NCBI GenBank assembly: GCA_963736115.1 | Contig: CAVTNR010000028.1 | Coordinates: 32,001 to 96,000, forward strand | DNA from: an uncultured bacterium | GTDB lineage: Bacteria > Zhuqueibacterota > QNDG01 > DTFT01 | Direction of reading: 5' to 3' | DNA length: 64,000 nucleotides | Part shown: positions 53,245-64,000 of the stretch, in pieces | How the letters are laid out: every line of letters starts with the position of its first letter | Numbering within the stretch: the stretch's first letter is position 1 | The notes under the pieces: generated by a model | What the model was told of the DNA's origin: nothing | Seen by the model: the letters and a program-made list of their open reading frames with translations, nothing else | Database searches by the model: none | Made by a program: the position numbers and the translations under genes

Positions 53245-54432
53245 TTATGCCTCGATCCGGATCAGTTCGTTCTGCTCCTCGCCCGCCACCACCACCTCCC
53301 CGCCGAGCGTGATGAAAACGTCCACTTCGGTGCGCACCGCCATTTTTCCTTCAAGGTAAATGCCCGGCTCCACGGAGAAGCAGATGCCCGGGATCAGCCG
53401 GCGCTCCTCCTTGGTCTCCAGATTGTCGATGTGCACGCCATTGCCGTGGACATTCTCGCCGATCGAATGCCCGGTACGGTGGATGAATCGGGAGCCGTAT
53501 CCCGCGTCCCGGACCACTTGCCGGCAGGCGTCGTCCACTTCCCATCCGTAACAAGGCCTGCCCTCGGCGAAACGTTTGCGGACGAAGGACACGGCCGCGT
53601 TGCGGGCGTCCCGCGCGATGCCGAAAATCTTCTCGTACTCAGCCGGCGGTTCGGCGCCCACATAGCCGCACCAGGTGATGTCCGCGAAAATCGCGCCGGG
53701 TTCATCCAACTTCGCCCAGAGGTCGATCAGCAGGGTGTCTCCCTTTTGGATCAGACGCGCGTTCGACGGCGTAGGCTCAAAATGGGGATTCGCAGGATGA
53801 TCGTTCACGCCGACGATGGGGAATTCGTCCATGCAGGTCAGTTTTTCCTCGCCGAAACGCCGGACGATGAACTTCTGCAGTTCGAACTCATTGATGAGTT
53901 TCCCCTCGCGGAGCGCCACCCGCACCTGGTCGAAAGCTTCGTCCTTGATCCGGTGGATGAGGCGGCTGGCTTCGAGATGCGACCGGTAGCCTTCTTCCGA
54001 GATGACGGCTTCGAACAGCTGGACCAGATCCGCGGAGGAAACCACTTCGTGCCCGAAACCGCGGACGAGTTCGACTGTTCCCGCGTCAACCAGGGAGACG
54101 TAGGGGATGTTGTTGAGCGGCGAATATTGCATGGCGATCCGCTTCGGCGCAGGATCGAGCATGCGACGCAGTTCTTCATGAAGCTCGGTCCAGGCCAGAT
54201 AGGCTGTTTTGCGGCCGGGAAGACCGTCGAGTTTCGTGGGTTCCACGCGGTGTACGAGCCGGACCGGATCGCCTTTCGCCGGTATGAAATAGTACCACCG
54301 CCTGCTGGTAAATTTTCCGGAATCGAGCCCCAGAACGCTGTAGGCGATCGGATCCCGGTTGTGAAAATCGCAGAGCAGCCAGCCGTCGATTTTTAAATCG
54401 ACCAGAACATCCTGAATAGCCTTGAGTTCCAT
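53245..54432 (-). CDS. M24 Xaa-Pro aminopeptidase family
   Basis: IDLW, ADIT, HRTGHSIG, SVEPGIY, VRTE. Confidence 0.9.
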   Translation of the reverse strand: MELKAIQDVLVDLKIDGWLLCDFHNRDPIAYSVLGLDSGKFTSRRWYYFIPAKGDPVRLVHRVEPTKLDGLPGRKTAYLAWTELHEELRRMLDPAPKRIAMQYSPLNNIPYVSLVDAGTVELVRGFGHEVVSSADLVQLFEAVISEEGYRSHLEASRLIHRIKDEAFDQVRVALREGKLINEFELQKFIVRRFGEEKLTCMDEFPIVGVNDHPANPHFEPTPSNARLIQKGDTLLIDLWAKLDEPGAIFADITWCGYVGAEPPAEYEKIFGIARDARNAAVSFVRKRFAEGRPCYGWEVDDACRQVVRDAGYGSRFIHRTGHSIGENVHGNGVHIDNLETKEERRLIPGICFSVEPGIYLEGKMAVRTEVDVFITLGGEVVVAGEEQNELIRIEA

Positions 54433-54435
54433 GTG

Positions 54436-55383
54436 TCAGTGCTCCTGTGGGCTTCCGCCGATTCCAAACCTCGAAACGGATGGCCCCGCATCCACCGTGT
54501 ACGGTGAAAAAGGACCGTGGATGAGAGCGATCAGCCGATTCCGCTCAGCCGGCCTGAGCCTGTTTCCGGACCGGAGCAGGAAATCCTCCGCAACAAACCG
54601 GTAATGACTGCGAAGAGAATCAAGATCGGATCTCACCTGATTTTCACCGGCAATCCCCCTGAATCCGTCCGCATGGAGCAGAAGCCGGTGCGTGGTCACA
54701 TCCGCTTCCGAATAATCCCCGCGAAATGCCTGATATTGAAAGATAAAACCGTGTATTCTCAGATCCGGGAGCATCCGGCGGAGCAAATGAGGGGATAAAT
54801 CCATTGACAGACACAGAGGACGGGATTTGACGTTGCTGCGCAGGATATACAAAAAGCAGGCCAGGACTTCCTTCGAATAACCACCTGCTGCGCATCCGGG
54901 AGGAGCAGGCTGATCTGAAGCGTTCCCCGCTTCAGGCGTCATGGATAATCCGTGCTCCCTGCGGACAGAATCCGTGAACCAGAGCCGGTCCAGGAATCCC
55001 ATGGGCAGGACCGCGACGTCGCGCCTGTATCCGTGAACAGATTGCCAGAACAGCACACTATCCGTGTCCGCCAGGGACCCGGTGAAAAGAACGGCTTTCT
55101 CAGGGCATGAATCCAGCAGAAGGCGGCCGTATTCGATCAGCCATTCCGGGAATCCGCCCCTGTCCCGGATTTTTCCGCAAACAACCGCTGTTTCCTTCCG
55201 GCTTCCATTCCGGAGCGCGATTTCCAGGTCCGCCGAGAAACGGGCATGAGGAATCCGGTAGTCCTCGGAAACGGGCGGGCGGTCCGATGCGGCCGTTCCG
55301 GACAAAGCCAGACCGGCCCAGATCGCAATTCCGGATAGAAACGCGAAGCGGGATTTAAACCGAATGGAAGATGGAGAGGTCAT
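54436..55383 (-). CDS. Hypothetical secreted protein with a DUF2723-like segment
   Basis: Signal peptide; PEKAVLFT..DT..WQSVHGYRRDV resembles my recollection of the DUF2723 C-terminal motif. Confidence 0.5.
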   Translation of the reverse strand: MTSPSSIRFKSRFAFLSGIAIWAGLALSGTAASDRPPVSEDYRIPHARFSADLEIALRNGSRKETAVVCGKIRDRGGFPEWLIEYGRLLLDSCPEKAVLFTGSLADTDSVLFWQSVHGYRRDVAVLPMGFLDRLWFTDSVRREHGLSMTPEAGNASDQPAPPGCAAGGYSKEVLACFLYILRSNVKSRPLCLSMDLSPHLLRRMLPDLRIHGFIFQYQAFRGDYSEADVTTHRLLLHADGFRGIAGENQVRSDLDSLRSHYRFVAEDFLLRSGNRLRPAERNRLIALIHGPFSPYTVDAGPSVSRFGIGGSPQEH

Positions 55384-55397
55384 GATTCGGCACCGGC

Positions 55398-55934
55398 TCA
55401 GGCCAGCTTGTATCCGATTTTCCGGAGCAGTTCCATGCGGTTCCGGACATCCTCGGGTTTTTCCGTTCCGAGCGGGGACTGGCCGTCGATCACACCGAGA
55501 ATACCCCTTCCCCGTTCGTTCTGCGCCACAATGACATCCGTGGGATTGGCCGTGGCGCAGAAGATCCGGCAGACCTCCGGAACCTGGCGCAGCACTGGAA
55601 GCACGCTCACCGGAAAGACATTCTCGAGGAAAACGATGAAGGCATGGCCCGCGCCGATGCGGAGCAGGTTGGTTTCCGCCAGGCGGGTCATTTCAGGGCT
55701 CGTTCCGCTGATCCTCAGCAGGCGCGGGCCCGAAGCCTCGCAGAAAGCCAGGCCGAAACGGATGCCTGGAACCGCCTGCACCAGCGTCTCGTGCACATCC
55801 TCGACTGTCTTGATGAAATGGGACTGGCCCAGGATGAAATTGACGGATTCCGGCTTCTCGATGGTGACGCATTCCAGATTGAAGCTCCCCGCGGCAAGCC
55901 GCGGGGAATCTTCTATCTGTAGAGAAGAAATCAT
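55398..55934 (-). CDS. Adenosine-specific kinase family (DUF355); native start displaced by an inserted element
   Basis: NFILGQSHFIKTVED, FGLAFCEASG, IFCATANP, GRGILGVIDG. Confidence 0.9.
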   Translation of the reverse strand: MISSLQIEDSPRLAAGSFNLECVTIEKPESVNFILGQSHFIKTVEDVHETLVQAVPGIRFGLAFCEASGPRLLRISGTSPEMTRLAETNLLRIGAGHAFIVFLENVFPVSVLPVLRQVPEVCRIFCATANPTDVIVAQNERGRGILGVIDGQSPLGTEKPEDVRNRMELLRKIGYKLA

Positions 55935-56080
55935 TTTATATTCGCTCGCTTTCCCCGCCGCCCGCTGCGCGGGACCAATTTATTATATTTTTAGAGTATT
56001 GAAGGCAAGCGGCGGGCCTTCAATGAGAAATTATCTTGTTGCTTGGTCCCGCGCAGCGGGGGAATGCGTTCGCTGACAGA
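55879..56080 (-). mobile_element. 202-bp IS200/IS605-like non-autonomous element with two nested cassettes
   Basis: Near-identical ends to 62730-62885; right end GATTCCCCGCGGCTTGCCGCGGGGAGCTTCAA. Confidence 0.75.
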
Positions 56081-56081
56081 T

Positions 56082-57566
56082 TCACGCATGCGCTCCCTTG
56101 CCGGATGACGCGGCGCCTCCGGACACGGCCGGCCGTTCCAGCCATCCGGCGGCGCGGAACAGATCTTCTTCGCCGAAACGCTTTCCGGTCAGCTGAACGC
56201 CGACGGGAAGCCCGTTGCGGTCGCGGCCCGCAGGGACGGATATGGCCGGAAGTCCGGCCAGGGGCGCGGTGACCGTGAATATGTCGGACAGATACATGGC
56301 CATCGGATCGTCCGTTTTTTCTCCGAGACGGAAAGCGGTTGTAGGCGTCGTCGGTCCCAGCACCACGTCGCAATTCCGGAACACGTCGTCGAAATCACGG
56401 ACGATCATTGTCCTCGCCTTCAGGGCCTTGCGGTAATAGGCCTCGACATATCCGGCTGAAAGAACGTATGTCCCCAGCAGAATACGCCGCTTGACTTCGT
56501 TCCCGAAACCCGCATGGCGCGTCCGGACCATCATGGTGTCCAGTCCGTCCTCTTCTCCGGCCCGCAGTCCATAATGGGCGCCTTCGTACCGGGCGAGGTT
56601 CGAGGACGCCTCGGCCGTGCAGATCAGATAGTAAGTCGCGATGCCGTAGGCGGCATGCGGGAGAGAAACCGGCACGAGCCGGCCGCCCGCCTGTTCCAAT
56701 CGTCCGGCCGCGGTCTCCACCGCGGCCCGGACGTCCGCGTCAACGCCGTCGTCCAGAAACTCCCTCGGCAATCCCACGCGGAGCCCCGTCATTTCCCGGC
56801 CGATGGTCTCCGAGTAGCTGGGGACGGGCTCTCCGGAGCAGGTCGCGTCCAAAGGATCCGGTCCTGCCATGACTTCGAGTATGCGCGCCGTGTCCTCCAC
56901 GGTCCGTGAAAGACTGCCGATCTGATCGAGCGAAGAGGCGAAAGCCACGAGTCCGTGCCTGGAGACGCGTCCGTAAGTCGGACGCAGTCCGACCGTTCCC
57001 GTGTGCGCCGCGGGCTGGCGCACGGAACCGCCTGTATCCGTGCCCAACGCGGCCATGACGACGCCGGCCGCGACCGCGGCCGCGGATCCGCCGCTCGATC
57101 CTCCGGGCGTCCGCTCCGGATCCGCGGGGTTCCGGACCGGGCCGAATGCGGAATTCTCGTTGGAAGACCCCATGCCGAATTCGTCCATGTTGGTCCTGCC
57201 GACGACCACCGCTCCTTCCGATCTCAGACGCCGGACAGCCGTGGCCGTGTACGGCGAGACGTATCGCTCCAGCATCCGCGAGCCGCAGGTGGTTGGAAGG
57301 CCTTCCATGGCGATCAGGTCCTTGACCCCCAATATCAAGCCCGCCAGACGGCCGGGACAACCCGCGGCCACGGCCCGGTCCGCGGCGGCCGCGTCTTCCA
57401 GCGCCTGATCGCGGCATAGGGATGTGAATGCGTTCAATCCGGCGCCGTGTTCGGCCAGCCGGAGCGCATGCTCGGCCAGCGTCTCTATCCGGATTGTACC
57501 GGACAGAACGTCTTCGCGGACAGCGGAATAATCCCGGGGAAAATCAGGGGTCGGCTGTCGTGACAT
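56082..57566 (-). CDS. gatA: Asp/Glu-tRNA amidotransferase subunit A
   Basis: TNMDEFGMGSS, PGGSSGGS, LGTDTGGSVRQPA, EASSNLARY, EVKRRILLG. Confidence 0.96.
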   Translation of the reverse strand: MSRQPTPDFPRDYSAVREDVLSGTIRIETLAEHALRLAEHGAGLNAFTSLCRDQALEDAAAADRAVAAGCPGRLAGLILGVKDLIAMEGLPTTCGSRMLERYVSPYTATAVRRLRSEGAVVVGRTNMDEFGMGSSNENSAFGPVRNPADPERTPGGSSGGSAAAVAAGVVMAALGTDTGGSVRQPAAHTGTVGLRPTYGRVSRHGLVAFASSLDQIGSLSRTVEDTARILEVMAGPDPLDATCSGEPVPSYSETIGREMTGLRVGLPREFLDDGVDADVRAAVETAAGRLEQAGGRLVPVSLPHAAYGIATYYLICTAEASSNLARYEGAHYGLRAGEEDGLDTMMVRTRHAGFGNEVKRRILLGTYVLSAGYVEAYYRKALKARTMIVRDFDDVFRNCDVVLGPTTPTTAFRLGEKTDDPMAMYLSDIFTVTAPLAGLPAISVPAGRDRNGLPVGVQLTGKRFGEEDLFRAAGWLERPAVSGGAASSGKGAHA

Positions 57567-57570
57567 GCGT

Positions 57571-57750
57571 TCAGGGCTTGGCAGAATCGTCGTTTTTCCG
57601 GTCGTCCGGATCGGGATTCTTTGTGGCATCCTTGAATTCGCGGATGCCTTTACCCAGACCCCGCGCCAGCTCCGGGATCTTCTTCGATCCGAACAGGAGC
57701 AGCACCACCAGAAGTATGATCAGAAGTTCGGGCACGCCTAAACTGGGCAT
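57571..57750 (-). CDS. tatA: Twin-arginine translocase TatA
   Basis: [33 protein letters not shown]. Confidence 0.92.
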
Positions 57751-57803
57751 TGGGTCTCCTCTCAATGGCGGACTCCGACGGACGGACGCTTGCCGCCGCC
57801 GGT

Positions 57804-58010
57804 TCATCCTTTCAGTTTCTTTTTTTCATCAGCGTCGTTTTCGTCGATGATTTTACGCATTTCCTCTCGCGCGTTCGAAGTCATCCGCTGCAGGTCGCGG
57901 TATCCTTTTCCCAGCTTGCGCGCCACCTGGGGCAGTTCGCGGCTGCCGAACAACAGCAGGAAGATCAGCAGAATGAGAAGCAGTTCCCCCATGCCCACGG
58001 GACCGAACAT
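57804..58010 (-). CDS. TatA/TatB-family subunit
   Basis: [26 protein letters not shown]. Confidence 0.85.
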
Positions 58011-58028
58011 GCGGTTTTCCTTTCCCGG

Positions 58029-58775
58029 TCAGGATTCCCTGCGGCTGTCCGCGATGAACAGACTGATAAAGGATTCCTCGCCCCGGGCGATGGAAGCGGT
58101 CCACTGCAGAATGCCGGACGCGATGAAGATGCAGAACATCGGGAACAAGGTCCGCTCCGGAAAGGACAGAGCCAGGCACAGGCCGGCGAGAACCAGGATC
58201 GACTTGATGCTCTGCCATCGGTCGATCCGGAAGTTCACTTTCGGCCAGTTATAGGGAATGGTACTCATCATCAGGAGGGGAACCGCCACCGCGATGAAAA
58301 ACCAGGGAAGCAGCGGGTTGGAACCGAACCAAGCGTTCTGGAAAAGCCAGAAAGTCGTGACCGTCATGGCTGAGATGGGGATGGTGAGCCCCAGATATTC
58401 ATGATCCTCGACTTCGGCGTTCATCACGTTGTACCGCGCCAGACGGTAGGCGCCCCCGAACAGGAAGAAGAAGCTCAGGGGGATGCCGATCATCGGATGC
58501 AGGGGGACGAAAACGGCCTGGTGCAGAAAAACGGCCGGAGCCAGCCCGAACGAAACGATATCACAGAGCGAATCCAGCTGGAGGCCGAAACGGCTCTCGG
58601 CGCCCGTCCATCGCGCCAGCCGTCCGTCAACCGCATCGATGATCGCGCAGATGACGACCAGCCAGGCGGCAACGTGAAAATTGCCCTCGATGGACTGCAG
58701 GATGGAAAAGAATCCGCAGAACAGATTCAGAAAAGTGAAGGTGCTCGGAATCATGGCCGTGGTTCTAGGATGCAT
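58029..58775 (-). CDS. pssA: CDP-diacylglycerol--serine O-phosphatidyltransferase
   Basis: DAVDGRLAR..G.QLDSLCDIVSFG, RLARYN; adjacent to psd. Confidence 0.88.
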   Translation of the reverse strand: MHPRTTAMIPSTFTFLNLFCGFFSILQSIEGNFHVAAWLVVICAIIDAVDGRLARWTGAESRFGLQLDSLCDIVSFGLAPAVFLHQAVFVPLHPMIGIPLSFFFLFGGAYRLARYNVMNAEVEDHEYLGLTIPISAMTVTTFWLFQNAWFGSNPLLPWFFIAVAVPLLMMSTIPYNWPKVNFRIDRWQSIKSILVLAGLCLALSFPERTLFPMFCIFIASGILQWTASIARGEESFISLFIADSRRES

Positions 58776-59430
58776 TCAGGAATTCTCCTATGATGGTTTC
58801 TCCCCCCTTCACGCGTTCCCCGGTTTTCACCCGCAAGGTAACACCCGCGGGAAGAAACAGCTCCGTCCGGGAGCCGAATTTAATCATGCCGAAGCGCGCC
58901 CCCCGGTCGACGGCATCCCCCTCCCGGACGCGGCAGACAATGCGGCGGGCGATGATGCCGGCGATCTGGCGTACGAGAAAACGGCCGGCCGGGCTCTCGA
59001 TACCGATCTCCATGCGCTCGTTGACCGCCGATGCTTCGGGCTCAAAGGCCTTGCGGAATTCGCCTTTCCGGTATGAACAATAGGTGACGCGGCCGTCCAC
59101 GGGAACACGATTGACGTGCACGTCCCAGACTGAGAGAAAAATCGCCACCCGGACCGCCTTCCCGCCCATGAAGGACGCCTCCTCCACCTCGGAGATGTCC
59201 ACAATCTGCCCGTCCGCGGGGGAGACGATTCGGTGGCTGCCTTCCGGAACGATCCGTTCCGGGTCGCGGAAAAAATACAACGTGAACACCAGGAGCAGGC
59301 CGAAGACCGCTCCCGCAACAATGAAAACCCTCCAGTGCGTGAACCGGAACAGCGCCCACATGAGGAGCGCACCAGCCGCCCACGCGGCCAGCGCGGGCAA
59401 TGATTCCTTGAACAACCGTCCTCCTATCAT
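58765..59430 (-). CDS. psd: Phosphatidylserine decarboxylase proenzyme
   Basis: FFRDPER, SPADG, DVHVNRVP, QIAG..ARRI, IKFGSR. Confidence 0.93.
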   Translation of the reverse strand: MIGGRLFKESLPALAAWAAGALLMWALFRFTHWRVFIVAGAVFGLLLVFTLYFFRDPERIVPEGSHRIVSPADGQIVDISEVEEASFMGGKAVRVAIFLSVWDVHVNRVPVDGRVTYCSYRKGEFRKAFEPEASAVNERMEIGIESPAGRFLVRQIAGIIARRIVCRVREGDAVDRGARFGMIKFGSRTELFLPAGVTLRVKTGERVKGGETIIGEFLNAS

Positions 59431-59486
59431 CAATGAGATTTTCTGAACAACGCCTCTGCGCGGGACGCTTCCCGGTCCGGAGTCTG

Positions 59487-60200
59487 TCACCGGACCTCGA
59501 TGCGCCCGGCCAGATCTTCGAACACTTCGTCCGCGTCCCGTTTGCCGATCTGGAAATGGGACATGTCCAGCCGTCCGTCCGCATCCGCGTCCCAGAGCTG
59601 GCAGGTTTCCGGGCTGATTTCGTCGCCGAGCGCCAGGGTTTCGTTCCGCATGCCGAATTCCAGAACCATATCCGCGAGCCGTAAATTCCGGCGTCCGAAG
59701 AAATCCTTGAGCACCACATTGACCTTTCGGGCGAGCCGGTCCATCTCCTGAATCTGTTCCGGCCGGCCCAAGCCGAGGATCTGGATGTGGTCCGCCTGAA
59801 CCATTGGATGATGCAGGGCCGGATTTTTCCAGGTCCACTCCAGCAGGGGCGTTTCGAAGGCCCTGCCCTTCTCGAATCCGTAACGTTTGCACAGGCTTCC
59901 GGACGCCGCGTTCCAGACCCAGACCGTGAGCGGGATCATGTCCAGCCTTCGCACCGCCATTTCACCCGGCCTGGGAACGGAAACGAAATGGGTCGGGATA
60001 TGATAATTCTCCAGAAATCGGAACAGATGGCCTGAGATGGTGCAGGCATGTTTGCCCAGGTTTTTCCCTTTGACGGGCTCTTTGCGGTCCCCGGCCGTGG
60101 TCTCGTTCTTGAACACCAGAAGGGCCGCGTCGTCCCGGTTCGTGGCGTACAGGCGCTTGGTCCTGCCTTCCTGCAGCATTTTCCCTTTTCGAATGTCCAA
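59487..60200 (-). CDS. SAICAR synthetase-like protein with degenerate active-site motifs
   Basis: PurC fold pattern (IPTHF, LDMIP, LEFG, DEISP..C.LWD) next to purB, but key residues are substituted. Confidence 0.8.
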   Translation of the reverse strand: MDIRKGKMLQEGRTKRLYATNRDDAALLVFKNETTAGDRKEPVKGKNLGKHACTISGHLFRFLENYHIPTHFVSVPRPGEMAVRRLDMIPLTVWVWNAASGSLCKRYGFEKGRAFETPLLEWTWKNPALHHPMVQADHIQILGLGRPEQIQEMDRLARKVNVVLKDFFGRRNLRLADMVLEFGMRNETLALGDEISPETCQLWDADADGRLDMSHFQIGKRDADEVFEDLAGRIEVR

Positions 60201-60252
60201 AGCGAACCTCCCTCGTTATAAATCCGCCGACAGGACGAATCGCGCCGTGTCG

Positions 60253-61551
60253 CTAGGGGATCAGGCCGGCCCTCCGGAAAATCCTGTCCACATGGCGAAG
60301 CTGGGCGCCGGGGTCGAAACAGGCCCCGATTTCAGCGGGCGTCAGCGTTTTCAGGATCTCCGGGTGACGGCCCGCGGCCGCCCTGAAGGACGCGCCGCTG
60401 TTCCAGCATTCCATCGAGAGATCCTGAACGATCCGGTACGCTTCCTCCCTCACAAGGCCCTTCGCAACCAGCGCCAGAAGCAGGGTCTGGGAGAAAACCA
60501 GGCCGCCGGTTTTTTCCAGGTTCTCGAGCATGCGGCCGGGATGAACCACCAGCTTTTCGATCAAAGTCGACGTCTTGGAAATCATGTAATGCATCAGAAT
60601 ATTGGCGTCCGGAAAAACCACGCGCTCGACCGAGGAATGAGAGATGTCCCGCTCATGCCAGAGGGGCTGGTTTTCCATTCCGCAGAGCGCGTAGGAGCGC
60701 ATCAGGCGGGCCAGGCCCGCGATTCGCTCGCAGACGATGGGATTCCGTTTGTGGGGCATGGCCGAGGACCCTTTCTGGCCCTTGGAGAAGTATTCCTCGG
60801 CCTCGAGCACTTCGGTCCTCTGGAGATGCCGGATCTCGACCGCCATCTTTTCGAGCGTGCCTGCGAGCACGGCCAGGACGGCGAGGTACTCGGCATGGCG
60901 GTCCCGCTGGACGACCTGGTTCGACACGGGCGCTGGACGAAGCCCCAGCCGGCCGCAAGCCTCCTCCTCGACTTCCGGATCCAGATGGGCGAATGTCCCG
61001 ACGGCGCCGGAAATCTTGCCGACGGATACGCTCTCGACCGCGGCTTCGAGCCGGCCGATCGACCGGCCGATTTCGTCGTACCACAGGGCGAGTTTGAGGC
61101 CGAAGGTGATGGGTTCCGCGTGCACGCCGTGCGTGCGGCCGATGCACACCGTGTCCTTGTGCTCCAGTGCCCTGCGGCCGATCCGTTCGCGGAGCCCCTC
61201 CAAGCCGCCAAGCAGGAGCCGTCCCGCCTCCCCGAGCTGAAGCGAAGTGGCCGTGTCCAGAACGTCCGACGAGGTCATGCCCATATGGATGAACCGGGAT
61301 TCGGGTCCGACTTTCTCGGCCACGCTGGTGAGAAAAGCGATGACATCGTGCTGGACCGTTTCCTCGATTTCGGCGATCCGGATCGGGTCGAATCCGGCCC
61401 TGGTCCGAATGACGTCCATCGCCCCGGCGGGGATCACGCCGCGGCCGGCCTGGACCTCGCACACCGCGAGCTCCACATCCAGCCATTTCCGGTAGCGGTT
61501 CTCCAGGCTCCAGACGGCGCCCATTTCGGGCAGGGTGTAGCGGTCGATCAC
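60253..61551 (-). CDS. purB: Adenylosuccinate lyase
   Basis: MIDRY, HDVIAF, GRTHG, GSSAMPHKRNP. Confidence 0.97.
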   Translation of the reverse strand: MIDRYTLPEMGAVWSLENRYRKWLDVELAVCEVQAGRGVIPAGAMDVIRTRAGFDPIRIAEIEETVQHDVIAFLTSVAEKVGPESRFIHMGMTSSDVLDTATSLQLGEAGRLLLGGLEGLRERIGRRALEHKDTVCIGRTHGVHAEPITFGLKLALWYDEIGRSIGRLEAAVESVSVGKISGAVGTFAHLDPEVEEEACGRLGLRPAPVSNQVVQRDRHAEYLAVLAVLAGTLEKMAVEIRHLQRTEVLEAEEYFSKGQKGSSAMPHKRNPIVCERIAGLARLMRSYALCGMENQPLWHERDISHSSVERVVFPDANILMHYMISKTSTLIEKLVVHPGRMLENLEKTGGLVFSQTLLLALVAKGLVREEAYRIVQDLSMECWNSGASFRAAAGRHPEILKTLTPAEIGACFDPGAQLRHVDRIFRRAGLIP

Positions 61552-61552
61552 G

Positions 61553-62890
61553 TCAGCGCTCCTCCGTCCCCGGTTTGGGGCTCAGTACCAGCCGATACAG
61601 CCTTCCGTTCCGGAAAATCCCCAAATCGACGGGCGTTACCGCGTCCGGGTCGAACAGCTCGGTGAAATTCCGGTAGGCGTCCGCGCCGCGAACCGGCTTC
61701 TGGTTGATAGTGATTATGACATCCCCCGGCCGCAGATCCGAACGTCCGGCCGGGCTTCCGGTCCGTATGCTTTCGATGCGGACCCCGTCACGGCTGGAGA
61801 TGCCGAGGCGCATGGCTTCGGCCGCGCTCAGCTCCCTGATTCCGATGCCGGTCCACGACTCGCGCTCCACGCGTCCGGCCGTCTTCAGGGCGGGCAGAAT
61901 GGCCTTGACGCGGTGTATGGGAATCGCGAATCCGATGCCGATCGAGGTCTTTTCGTAATTACTGCCCGAAATGATGAAGGCGTTGATGCCGATGCACTCG
62001 CCCAGGCTGTTGACGAGCGGGCCGCCGCTGTTTCCGCCGTTGATGGCCGCGTCCGTCTGGATCATGTCCCCGTACGAGCGGCCGGCGATGCGCAGTTCGC
62101 CCTTGAAATTCATGCCGATCGCGCTGACGACGCCGACGGTGACCGTCGGCTTGGAATTGACGTCGAACAGGCCGAACGGATTGCCCAGGGCGATCACCCA
62201 TTCGCCGATGAGAATATCCCGCGAATCGCCCAGTGGAATAAACGGGAAACGGGTCCCCTTGATTTTGAGAAGGGCGACGTCGAACAGAAAATCCGCTCCG
62301 ACGCGCTCGGCCGTGTACTGCTTCCCGTCCGTGGTCGTCACGATGATTTCAGATGCGTCGTGGACCACGTGTTCGTTCGTGAGAACGTAGCCGTCCCGTG
62401 AAATCAGGAAACCGGACCCGAGCCCCTGAACCCGCTGGGTCATCTCGCGGGGTTCGAAAAACATGCGAAAAAACGGATCATCGAACGGCGACGTCTCGAC
62501 CCGCTGAATCTGGGTCACGTTGATGCCAACCACGGCAGGGCTGACATCCGCGACAGCCCGGGTGATGGCGCTTTGCCGCGACTGGCTGACCGCGTCGTTG
62601 AGGTCCGCCCGGGTCTGCGCGTAGACGGCCTGCCCGGCTGCGGGCGGAAGGGCCTGCGGTCCGGACTTCCGGCCGCAGGCGAGGACCATCAGGGCAGCCA
62701 CAGTCAGGAAACTTTTAAATGAGCGAATATTGAAGCTCCCCGCCGCAAGCGGCGGGGAATCTTCTATCTGTAGAGAAGAGACATCTGATATTCGCTCGCT
62801 TACCCCGCGGCCCCGCTTCGCGGGACCAATCGATTCTATGCCTTCTGGTTGAAGGCAAGCCGCGGGGAATGCGCTCGCTGACAGATTCAT
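61553..62890 (-). CDS. HtrA/DegQ-like serine protease with PDZ domain (lipoprotein); 52-codon in-frame element at the N-terminus
   Basis: GLGSGF, LTNEHVV, DVALLK, QTDAAINGGNSGGPL; VLAC lipobox; alternative start 62914. Confidence 0.9.
   Translation of the reverse strand: MNLSASAFPAACLQPEGIESIGPAKRGRGVSERISDVSSLQIEDSPPLAAGSFNIRSFKSFLTVAALMVLACGRKSGPQALPPAAGQAVYAQTRADLNDAVSQSRQSAITRAVADVSPAVVGINVTQIQRVETSPFDDPFFRMFFEPREMTQRVQGLGSGFLISRDGYVLTNEHVVHDASEIIVTTTDGKQYTAERVGADFLFDVALLKIKGTRFPFIPLGDSRDILIGEWVIALGNPFGLFDVNSKPTVTVGVVSAIGMNFKGELRIAGRSYGDMIQTDAAINGGNSGGPLVNSLGECIGINAFIISGSNYEKTSIGIGFAIPIHRVKAILPALKTAGRVERESWTGIGIRELSAAEAMRLGISSRDGVRIESIRTGSPAGRSDLRPGDVIITINQKPVRGADAYRNFTELFDPDAVTPVDLGIFRNGRLYRLVLSPKPGTEER
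62730..62885 (-). mobile_element. 156-bp IS200/IS605-like non-autonomous element with one nested cassette
   Basis: Second full copy; TCTGTCAGCGAGCGCATTCCCC...GCGGGGAGCTTCAA. Confidence 0.75.
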
Positions 62891-62919
62891 ACTGCTTTTC
62901 CGATAATCGTTCATGTGAC

Positions 62920-63651
62920 TCAGTATTCCACGCGGACCAGAAACAGGCCTTGCGGCGGAGCCGTGGGCCCGGCCTTTTCGCGGTCTCCGGATTCCAGAAC
63001 AGCGCGGAAATCGGCCGGCGTCAGTGCGCCCCTGCCCACCTCGACCAGCGTGCCGATGAGAATCCGGACCATGTGGTGAAAGAACCGCACGGCGGCGATC
63101 TCGAACTTCACCGTGTCCGCCTCCGCCTCCCACCGCACCGAATGCACTTCCGATTCGTACCGCTCCTCTTTCGGGTCCCGCTTGCAGAAAGCCGTCCAGC
63201 GGTGGAGCCCCTTCAGACATTCGGAGGCGGCCGCCATGGCCTCCACATTGAAACGGCATCGGGGATGCCAGGCGTACTGTCTTCCCACGGCCAGTGGCGC
63301 ACGCGAGAGCACGTACCGGTAAACGCGGCGGCTGGCGCGCCGCCTCGCGTCGAAACCGTCCTCCGCCGTTTCCACGGACCGGACGCGGATGTCAGCCGGC
63401 AGCATGGCGTTCAGGGCGCGTTGTACCGTTTCCAGAGGGTACTTGTCCTCAGCCCTGCAGCTCGCCACCTGTCCGAGCGCGTGCACGCCGGCGTCCGTCC
63501 TACCGGCGCCGGTGACGGGCACCGGACCGCCGAACAGGCGCCCCAGCGCCGCTTCCAATTCCGCCTGCACGGTGCGGTCTCCGGGCTGACGCTGCCAGCC
63601 GTGAAAATCCGACCCGTCGTATTCGAGCACCAGTTTATAGGTGCGGTTCAA
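62920..63651 (-). CDS. truA: tRNA pseudouridine(38-40) synthase
   Basis: EYDGSDFHGWQ, AGRTDAGVHA, F..HMVR..G, TAPPQGLFL. Confidence 0.96.
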   Translation of the reverse strand: MNRTYKLVLEYDGSDFHGWQRQPGDRTVQAELEAALGRLFGGPVPVTGAGRTDAGVHALGQVASCRAEDKYPLETVQRALNAMLPADIRVRSVETAEDGFDARRRASRRVYRYVLSRAPLAVGRQYAWHPRCRFNVEAMAAASECLKGLHRWTAFCKRDPKEERYESEVHSVRWEAEADTVKFEIAAVRFFHHMVRILIGTLVEVGRGALTPADFRAVLESGDREKAGPTAPPQGLFLVRVEY

Positions 63652-63654
63652 GCC

Positions 63655-64000
63655 TCATCCCGCGGAGAAAAAAGACGGTCGCACGAGAAGCGCGTCCGCG
63701 GTGAGAGTAGCGGCCGCGATACAGAACGCTGCAGCGAGCGCCATCCGGTCAGGCCGCCTGAAAGCCAGCGGCCGGAACTGGGTGCGGCCGTCTCCGCCCT
63801 GATAGCACCGCGCATCCATGGCCATGGCCAGATCCCCGGCCTTCCTGAAACTGGACACAAAAAGCGGTATGACGACCGGGAAAACGCCGCGTATCCGGGT
63901 CTGAAGCGAACCGCCGGTCCGGGCTCCCCTGGACAACTGGGCCTTGCGGATGCGGTCGGCCTCGTCGATCAGAAGCGGTATGAACCGGATGGAGATCGAG
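63655..64000 (-). CDS. ecfT: ECF transporter transmembrane component T (3' part)
   Basis: SIRFIP....ADRIRKAQLSRG, LAMAMDARCY; typical position upstream of truA. Confidence 0.88.
   Translation of the reverse strand, partial: SISIRFIPLLIDEADRIRKAQLSRGARTGGSLQTRIRGVFPVVIPLFVSSFRKAGDLAMAMDARCYQGGDGRTQFRPLAFRRPDRMALAAAFCIAAATLTADALLVRPSFFSAG

Follow-up and report, generated by a model that had tools for sequence, protein, structure and literature searches.

A nested hairpin module of about 45 bp with covarying ends in the repeats of an uncultured Zhuqueibacterota bacterium

Introduction

In Escherichia coli, BIME-1 or RIP elements consist of two repetitive extragenic palindromic (REP) sequences around a site for integration host factor (IHF), the pneumococcal BOX element is a modular mosaic repeat, and the attC sites of integrons have core sites of the form RYYYAAC ... 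GTTRRRY. How REPs and other tiny hairpin repeats spread is reported to be still poorly understood (PMC8266576). Described here is a module of about 45 bp, the cassette, found in three copies in a stretch of 64,000 nucleotides (the window; positions 32001-96000 of contig C28) from the genome of an uncultured bacterium of the Zhuqueibacterota. The genome (G000) comprises 3.34 Mb in 31 contigs, has a G+C content of ~60% and is 87% complete. The cassette is a discrete, structured module that is nested in the hairpins of other repeats, has covarying ends, is old and has expanded in this genus.

The described systems used for comparison are the REPs with their bacterial interspersed mosaic elements (BIME), REPIN arrangements and RAYT (TnpA_REP) genes (PMC2817692, PMC3116915, PMC3733652, PMC8266576), and the IS200/IS605 family with its palindrome-associated transposable elements (PATE). 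In IS608, guide bases next to the hairpin foot are reported to select the cleavage sites through base pairing, with the left site 19 nt from the foot on its 5' side and the right one, TCAA, 10 nt away on its 3' side (PMC3201880); the GTAG of REPs has been proposed for the same guide role (PMC8266576). REPs have also been reported within other palindromes, namely GTAG-23 of T. roseum, GTAG-15 of A. variabilis and CGTC-1 of H. neapolitanus, and these insertions within small palindromes are the nearest published precedent found for nesting (PMC3733652). In the open-access literature, which cannot show novelty, no description was found of a module with the ends reported here, or of cassette-type insertion into the hairpins of REPs or of miniature inverted-repeat transposable elements (MITE).

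Features of the cassettes

An earlier note, made from the letters of this DNA, placed three cassettes in the window, each interrupting a palindrome of a host element. The positions and the interruption were confirmed; the interrupted sequence is a hairpin, CCCCGCSG-CAAG-CSGCGGGG, and the host element, called H below, is itself repeated. The pattern GCGGGACCAA-N15-25-TTGAAGG matched three times in the window and not once in 100 dinucleotide-preserving shuffles. The features are as follows.

55961..56005, + strand: cassette 1, with hairpin CCCGC-TGC-GCGGG, ACCAA, a 20-nt AT-rich core and TTGAAGG; 3' of the 5' arm in the second hairpin of host element H1.
56017..56060, - strand: cassette 2, in inverted orientation, its core 19 nt long; at the 3' base of the H1 hairpin that also holds cassette 1.
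62812..62855, + strand: cassette 3, its 19-nt core belonging to the most frequent subfamily (..ATGCCTTCTGG); 3' of the 5' arm in the second hairpin of host element H2.
55879..56080, + strand: H1, 202 bp, the 111-bp element plus two cassettes; from TTGAAGCT.. to ..GCTGACAGA, then TTCA.
62730..62885, + strand: H2, 156 bp, the 111-bp element plus one cassette.

Cassettes 1 and 2 form an inverted dimer that is predicted to fold into one long imperfect hairpin (DNA fold of 55950-56070: -35 kcal/mol, z -6.2). Host copies free of cassettes exist: the one at C27:116663 aligns to the third cassette site with one clean gap (pair h121, C27:116673, 96% identity over 80 nt), cassette 2 is supported by a filled and empty pair of paralogues (h122), and many cassette-free host copies in sister genomes match query positions 931-1012 and 1055-1091, with the cassette skipped.

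Throughout the genome the module has the form (T)CCCGC-NNN-GCGGG, A(C/T)CAA, an AT-rich core of 17-23 nt and TTGAAG(G/A), that is, about 45 bp beginning with a 5-bp GC hairpin. The strict pattern gave 62 matches, the looser anchor GACCAA-N12-30-TTGAAG 105, and an anchor permitting A(C/T)CAA 186. A perfect hairpin of at least 4 bp directly abuts 139 of these 186, against 603 of 7354 control AYCAA sites (8.2%). Retained as true cassettes were 153 copies that had either a hairpin with a stem of 4 bp or more or, following GG, an AT-rich core; some 30 anchor matches, mostly GC-rich and intragenic, were discarded as chance. The stem variants are compensatory: CCCGC/GCGGG in 88 copies, CCGGC/GCCGG in 17, CCCG/CGGG in 16, GCCGC/GCGGC in 5, CCAGC/GCTGG in 2 and CCAT/ATGG in one.

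The copies are evenly divided between the strands (77 + and 76 -). By crude calls of open reading frames (ORFs), 97 of the 153 are intergenic and 53 of the other 56 sit within 400 nt of an ORF start or 150 nt of an ORF end, so that 150 lie outside ORFs or at their ends; the ORFs that hold the 53 are likely over-extended. Cassette 3 is one of the three deep intra-ORF cases, and since sister genomes lack the element there, its ORF is over-called.

Two ideas about the content of the cassettes were dropped. A promoter formed in inverted dimers by TTGAAG as the -35 box and an AT-rich -10 box found no support, as a scan with a sigma-70-like consensus gave three sites in 7.7 kb and none inside cassettes. 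A small peptide was considered for a reverse-strand ATG frame through cassette 2, which by eye is not conserved in paralogues. No Rfam match was obtained for window positions 54000-64000 at E values up to 1.

Insertion into hairpins

The 45-nt left and 45-nt right flanks of 124 copies, found with a hairpin-aware expression, were joined and searched against the genome. A junction-spanning paralogue was found for 81 copies, 78 of which gave a single clean gap in global alignment. The gap measured 45 bp in 34 pairs, 44 bp in 17, 46 bp in 13, 43 bp in 8, 48 bp in 3, and 49, 41 and 38 bp in one each; thus 76 of the 78 fall within 43-49 bp. Bases were missing on the empty side in none of the 78 pairs. 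Microhomology at the junction amounted to 0 nt in 18 pairs, 1 nt in 33, 2 nt in 13, 3 nt in 6 and 4 nt in 8, and as it has no fixed length, there is no fixed target duplication. The hosts represent at least 12 different hairpin contexts, all GC-rich, with the cassette in or beside the hairpin. The host sites are the following (^ marks the junction).

Both hairpins of H, either strand: after the 5' arm (CCCCGCSG^CAAG).
Base of the H hairpins: ATTC^CCCGCSG.
Loop of the REP that flanks the RAYT gene on contig C2: GCAGCCTGAA^GGCTGC.
REP that flanks the RAYT gene on contig C19: two positions.
Other GC hairpins.
Hairpin of another cassette: CCGG^CTTCGCCGGACCAA.

Insertion into the module's own hairpin leads to tandem runs and stacked arrays. 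The tandem runs belong to the type with a 17-nt core, which forms head-to-tail arrays of 38-bp period inside REP loops:

C9:30552-30632 of this genome: two units.
G001:C13:32816-32925 of a sister species: three units.

The earlier note had offered a tiny hyper-parasitic element as one reading. The discrete, loss-free indel, the range of at least 12 hairpin contexts and the difference in cassette load between orthologous hosts (see below) all speak for it.

These arrays, together with a 10-nt segment (GCTTCGCGGG) that stands on both sides of the module in one REP host (pair h27), could also have arisen with no insertion at all, if hairpin loops expanded by slippage or template switching and then drifted. 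That course of events is very improbable. It would have to yield one and the same module, ends included, in at least 12 unrelated hosts and at two positions relative to the hairpin, and identical cores at different host positions (C14:258559 and C28:87973); no intermediates of graded length occur among the 78 pairs, and in other families of the order the low-copy cassettes are found apart from any hairpin family of this kind.

Covariation of the ends

Next to the hairpin foot, the variable second position of A(C/T)CAA covaries with the base that follows TTGAAG, about 30 nt away. Among the 153 copies the pair is C..G in 100, T..A in 44, C..A in 4, T..G in 3 and otherwise in 2. Counts with the exact pattern in the four members of the genus (C..G/T..A/C..A/T..G) are:

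G000, this genome: 72/44/3/2.
G001: 52/26/2/0.
G002: 25/47/0/2.
G003: 30/26/1/1.

Together these give 322 concordant and 11 discordant copies for one covarying pair. Each of the two concordant states is represented in the three main length classes of the core and also on cores that are identical or differ by one mismatch. Thus the core of cassette 1, TTTATTATATTTTTAGAGTA, which has three exact copies in the genome, is combined with T..A at C3:25261 and with C..G at C14:258560 and at C28:87974. Both states also coexist in distant members of the order, as in G019 with three copies of C..G and one of T..A. The distribution is read as at least four independent double changes at the end pair. No other pair of positions stood out, and a scan for hairpins in the inner core gave weak and inconsistent signals.

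Such an end pairing corresponds to YCAA / TT(GAA)GR, an inverted repeat with imperfections; seen from the reverse strand, the first two bases of the module would pair with a dinucleotide that a single base separates from the hairpin foot (TTGR-T-foot). The covariation suggests joint recognition of the two ends, or pairing between them, as at the ends of single-strand (Y1/HUH) transposons, and it is a new finding for this module. The earlier note had pointed to a likeness to IS200/IS605 ends; that was a fair lead, which is better borne by the covariation and by the host element H than by the spacer logic in which it was put forward.

Core sequences

The core measures 20 nt in 68 of the 153 copies, 19 nt in 53, 17 nt in 18 and other lengths between 15 and 25 nt in 14. 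The consensus cores are GCtATTatATTTtTgaAtTA, GCtATTAtATgccTTCTgg and tCtaCAGATGCcGgcTA. Mean pairwise identity is 0.61 among 43 distinct 19-mers, 0.61 among 58 distinct 20-mers and 0.65 among 17 distinct 17-mers, as against 0.25-0.32 for letter-shuffled controls. The description of the variable parts as unrelated, given in the earlier note, is fair for the three window cores, which agree pairwise at only 6-9 of 19 positions, but fails for the genome as a whole, where the cores are homologous. The core of cassette 3, TCGATTCTATGCCTTCTGG, has two exact copies in this genome; it is found at C2:13965 and in a sister species at G001:C25:3147; the core of cassette 2 has relatives at four to five mismatches in this genome. 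Identical or nearly identical cores are present in the sister species G001-G003.

These data bear on the proposal that the cassettes form a dispersed single-spacer system in which a TnpB, IscB or HUH protein uses each core of 19-20 nt as a captured guide. The core length of 17-23 nt is within the range of TnpB guides, and the TTCAA-like ends and the TTGRT before the hairpin recall IS200/IS605 ends. Since the same cores recur across species, they are not spacers; what was found instead are variable lengths and a continuum of homologous inner sequences, which the earlier note itself had named as a refuting outcome. The constant parts (a hairpin of 13 nt, 5 nt and 7 nt) are far below the size of an omega-RNA scaffold and so give the guide system no support. 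The TnpB domain PF07282 had no match in this genome, and PF01385 had none in the four genus members, in a search of genomes 76-96% complete that did not extend to IscB. The composite element matched none of 50,697 phage records, and the sole pattern match on a viral contig has no hairpin and a GC-rich inner part and is read as chance. The guide reading is therefore close to refuted, and on sequence comparison the cores are best taken as drifting family sequence. A CRISPR array was also discarded, as the copies are dispersed and the longest tandem runs have two to three units with homologous cores.

Host element H

Cassette-free H is a MITE-like element of 111 bp with two direct GC hairpins, laid out as TTGAAGCT, hairpin, AATCTTCTATCTGTAGAGAAGA.., ATTCGCTCGCTTA, hairpin, AATGCGCTCGCTGACAGA. 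Among 36 copies with both ends, six measure 111-112 bp, seven 154-156 bp, seven 199-202 bp, seven 244-248 bp and two 286-288 bp; the clusters correspond to zero to four cassettes, and shorter variants occur at 91, 124, 137, 180 and 221 bp. The right end is followed by TT in 52 of 54 cases and by TTCA in 35 of 54, and empty sites retain TTCA.

H1 is absent from the orthologous site in two sister species (G001:C78, G003:C257) and H2 in three (G001:C78, G002:C124, G003:C293). An environmental contig of a relative bridges window positions 62709 to 62887 without H2 and with 24 other letters; contigs in three runs skip 62808-62854 and represent cassette-free H copies, possibly from other loci. The composites at C9:25534 and C14:258530 are likewise absent in sister species, so that all four informative composite sites of this genome are empty there; for C12:324547 and C8:249443, the sister assemblies yielded no more than one flank. 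As H is absent from orthologous sites in sister species, it is recently mobile. One further site is informative for the cassettes.

63646..63647, no strand: empty target site in this genome, ..GGTGCGG^TTCAAGCC..

At this site G001 carries an H with no cassette and G003 a shortened H with three, with identical flanks and the same unusual right-end variant; the cassette load thus changes within what appears to be a single orthologous element.

The reverse strand of H follows TGAA, has 18 nt to the foot of the first hairpin and, 8 nt past the second one, terminates in ..TTCAA, as in the IS200/IS605 family. H fits that layout even better than the cassette does, although this is a resemblance and not a proof of membership. 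Profile searches found no tnpA or tnpB of the IS200 type, and no autonomous partner was found for H or for the cassette. Cassette-free H copies gave no Rfam match at E values up to 1.

Some side observations concern H. The first H hairpin with ATCTTCTATC scores as terminator-like. The best sigma-70-like match of the region (window 62878-62907, CTGACA-18-GATAAT, 10/12) spans the right end of H2 and its flank and faces the downstream ORF. An H-like element is present on plasmids of Ca. Manganitrophus (Nitrospirota) between convergent genes (CP114557.1 3001-3105, also CP114554.1 and CP114562.1); it is 77-78% identical over 99-104 nt and keeps the end motifs of H, ATTGAAGCT.. on the left and a following TTCA on the right. 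Its occurrence on plasmids of another phylum means that H-type elements cross phyla. These plasmid matches concern H only, and with no phage match to the composite, a phage or plasmid origin of the cassette was rejected.

Distribution among relatives

In a search of 41 relatives, more than one match to the strict pattern per genome was confined to the genus (62, 45, 20 and 28 matches); three other genomes gave a single match and 34 gave none, and the reversed control had no match. The relaxed pattern GGGAYCAA-N17-21-TTGAAGR matched 115, 78, 72 and 56 times in the four genus members and was found in 18 of the 31 genomes of the order, with 1-18 matches in each of 14 genomes outside the genus and 0-1 per genome for the reversed control. 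The highest of these are G026 with 18 matches, G028 with 15, G023 with 5, and G027, G019 and G005 with 4 each, and each has local subfamilies of cores. In a scan with one genome per species, 41 of the at least 80 matches listed came from three metagenome-assembled genomes (MAGs), and the rest were singletons, including ten in Bradyrhizobium (one each). Among 120 metagenome stretches listed, there are at least about a dozen convincing cassettes. The family is thus present across the order and has its largest expansion in this genus.

Two loci outside the genus showed single cassettes in unusual settings. In G028, from another family, a cassette ends an insert of ~135 nt directly upstream of a tRNA gene (contig C2, ~1350-1560 of the extracted locus, minus strand), and the insert is flanked by a 17-nt duplicate of the 5' end of the tRNA. 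In G030 a cassette lies between a 20-codon fragment and the full copy of the same Ser/Thr-kinase-like gene start (contig C18, ~1350-1600 of the extracted locus, minus strand); the duplicate of ~57 nt has diverged, and the insert provides a GGAGG located 8 nt ahead of the downstream ATG.

Conserved among the 18 of 31 genomes are the ends together with the initial half of the core (G-C/T-W-A-T..AT), and the copies in this genome are essentially all intergenic. Both features would suit a cellular motif, either a protein-binding site or a structural DNA or RNA element like the IHF linker of the E. coli BIME or RIP, that is carried from one GC hairpin to another and spread mainly by recombination, gene conversion and hitch-hiking on host repeats. 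With the IHF consensus of E. coli, a distant organism, AYCAA plus core fits ATCAANNNNTTR in 23 of 49 copies of the ATCAA type, and 71 of the 153 copies match AYCAANNNNTTR. REPs are reported to recruit IHF (PMC3479197), and small mobile repeats with IHF sites have been described (PMC2229807). Such a function is nevertheless unlikely to account for the module: a binding site leaves unexplained the Watson-Crick covariation of bases 30 nt apart, as well as the precise loss-free indel in 12 unrelated hairpin contexts and the self-nesting. Half of the copies do not fit the IHF-like core, and the negative promoter and Rfam results also speak against it.

Candidate enzymes

A search of this genome with the Y1 profile PF01797 (Y1_Tnp) gave three RAYT-like genes, each bracketed by its own REP family.

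C17:75009-75746: RAYT-like Y1 gene.
C2:71373-71915: RAYT-like Y1 gene.
C19:57396-57902: RAYT-like Y1 gene.

The flanking REPs are of the GTAG type or of another family, and two of the three families also host cassettes. Another five Y1 genes, from G001, G026 and G028, likewise have REPs of their own on their flanks. The C17 type was found only in this genome and the C2 type in this genome and G001; the C19 type has orthologues of 70-77% identity in all four genus members. Distant Y1 homologues occur in 20 of the 31 genomes of the order.

A different recombinase that targets folded hairpins or REPs, either of the IS110/IS1111 type or an integron-type tyrosine recombinase acting on attC-like sites, is a highly improbable source of the cassettes. 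IS110-family elements are indeed reported to insert into REPs (PMC12288879). The 45-bp module, however, cannot encode a bridge RNA, and its ends, GGGAYCAA ... (A/G)TTGAAGR, do not by eye fit the attC core sites. No IS110-type or integron-type enzyme was found adjoining cassettes, although no search was aimed at them.

Relation to known elements

The cassettes are probably a nested mobile or formerly mobile mini-element of the non-autonomous, REP or MITE kind. Most copies would multiply by riding on H. The original insertion into new hairpins would take place on single-stranded, folded DNA and may be made in trans by a Y1/HUH enzyme, which would recognise the hairpin, with the cleavage site set by pairing of the bases near the foot with the terminal bases. 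The guide pairing reported for IS608 (PMC3201880) and the guide role proposed for GTAG (PMC8266576) make such a mechanism plausible, and the involvement of a Y1 enzyme in cassette movement is put forward here as a tentative proposal.

Like REPs, BIMEs and REPINs, the cassette has a short GC hairpin with compensatory stems, is high in copy number and extragenic, occurs as singletons, inverted dimers and mosaic clusters, and has persisted long in one lineage whose genome has RAYT genes (PMC2817692, PMC3116915, PMC3733652, PMC8266576). Unlike them, it has no GTAG or CGTC tag and carries TTGRT (TTGGT or TTGAT) 5' of the foot on the reverse strand; it is a hairpin with a 30-nt AT-rich tail ending in TTGAAGR rather than a palindrome alone; it flanks no RAYT gene, and it inserts into the hairpins of other repeat families as well as into its own. 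With IS608 and the PATEs of the IS200/IS605 family (PMC3201880), it shares the lack of inverted terminal repeats and target duplication and the seamless indel; its hairpin adjoins bases covarying with the distal terminus, which may correspond to the pairing between guide and cleavage site. BIME-1/RIP and BOX resemble it in having optional modules in variable number, and an AT-rich linker between GC hairpins, with an IHF-like core in some copies, is also common ground; the cassette differs by its precise insertion into the hairpin itself and by its covarying ends.

The more specific view that the cassette is a previously undescribed minimal single-strand module of the HUH/Y1 type is doubtful. 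It would hold that one hairpin and a tail of ~30 nt, with a terminal dinucleotide that pairs with the foot-side dinucleotide, are specialised to invade other Y1-dependent repeats (REPs and an IS200/IS605-like MITE) at the hairpins that transposases bind, making the cassette a hyperparasite of repeats that has persisted across the order.

Several points weigh against a mobile element moved by such an enzyme. No enzyme is linked to the module: of the eight Y1 genes inspected (three in this genome and five in relatives), none has the ends of a cassette or of H on its flanks, a single type among the three is common to the whole genus, and the presence of Y1 genes across the order does not follow that of cassettes. 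The cassette has a single hairpin and not two subterminal ones as in IS200/IS605; H has two. Its junctions show no conserved target tetranucleotide, and left and right flanks differ between contexts; the fixed TT(CA) is a feature of H. Orientation shows no bias relative to the sign of local GC skew (42/41/36/34), a weak test in a fragmented assembly, or to gene direction (38/29). An element behaving strictly like IS200/IS605 would be expected to have both a fixed target and an orientation bias. The covariation concerns one variable pair, the copies are not independent, as many ride on H, and core conversion that preserves both ends could imitate double changes that arose independently. Neither a circle junction nor a polymorphism within a population, nor any other direct sign that a cassette has recently moved by itself, was obtained, and a cellular function under selection would also account for conserved ends that persist throughout the order.

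Implications

For genomics of this lineage, the modules break MAG assemblies, with many matches at contig ends, and they can be mistaken for guide or spacer loci. For the study of how repeats spread, the module is a clean natural data set with hundreds of copies, exact empty and filled sites and many hosts, and its built-in compensatory pair points to how the module ends are recognised. If a Y1 enzyme moves the module, it would be the smallest known substrate of that chemistry, and it would show repeats that parasitise the recognition hairpins of other repeats.

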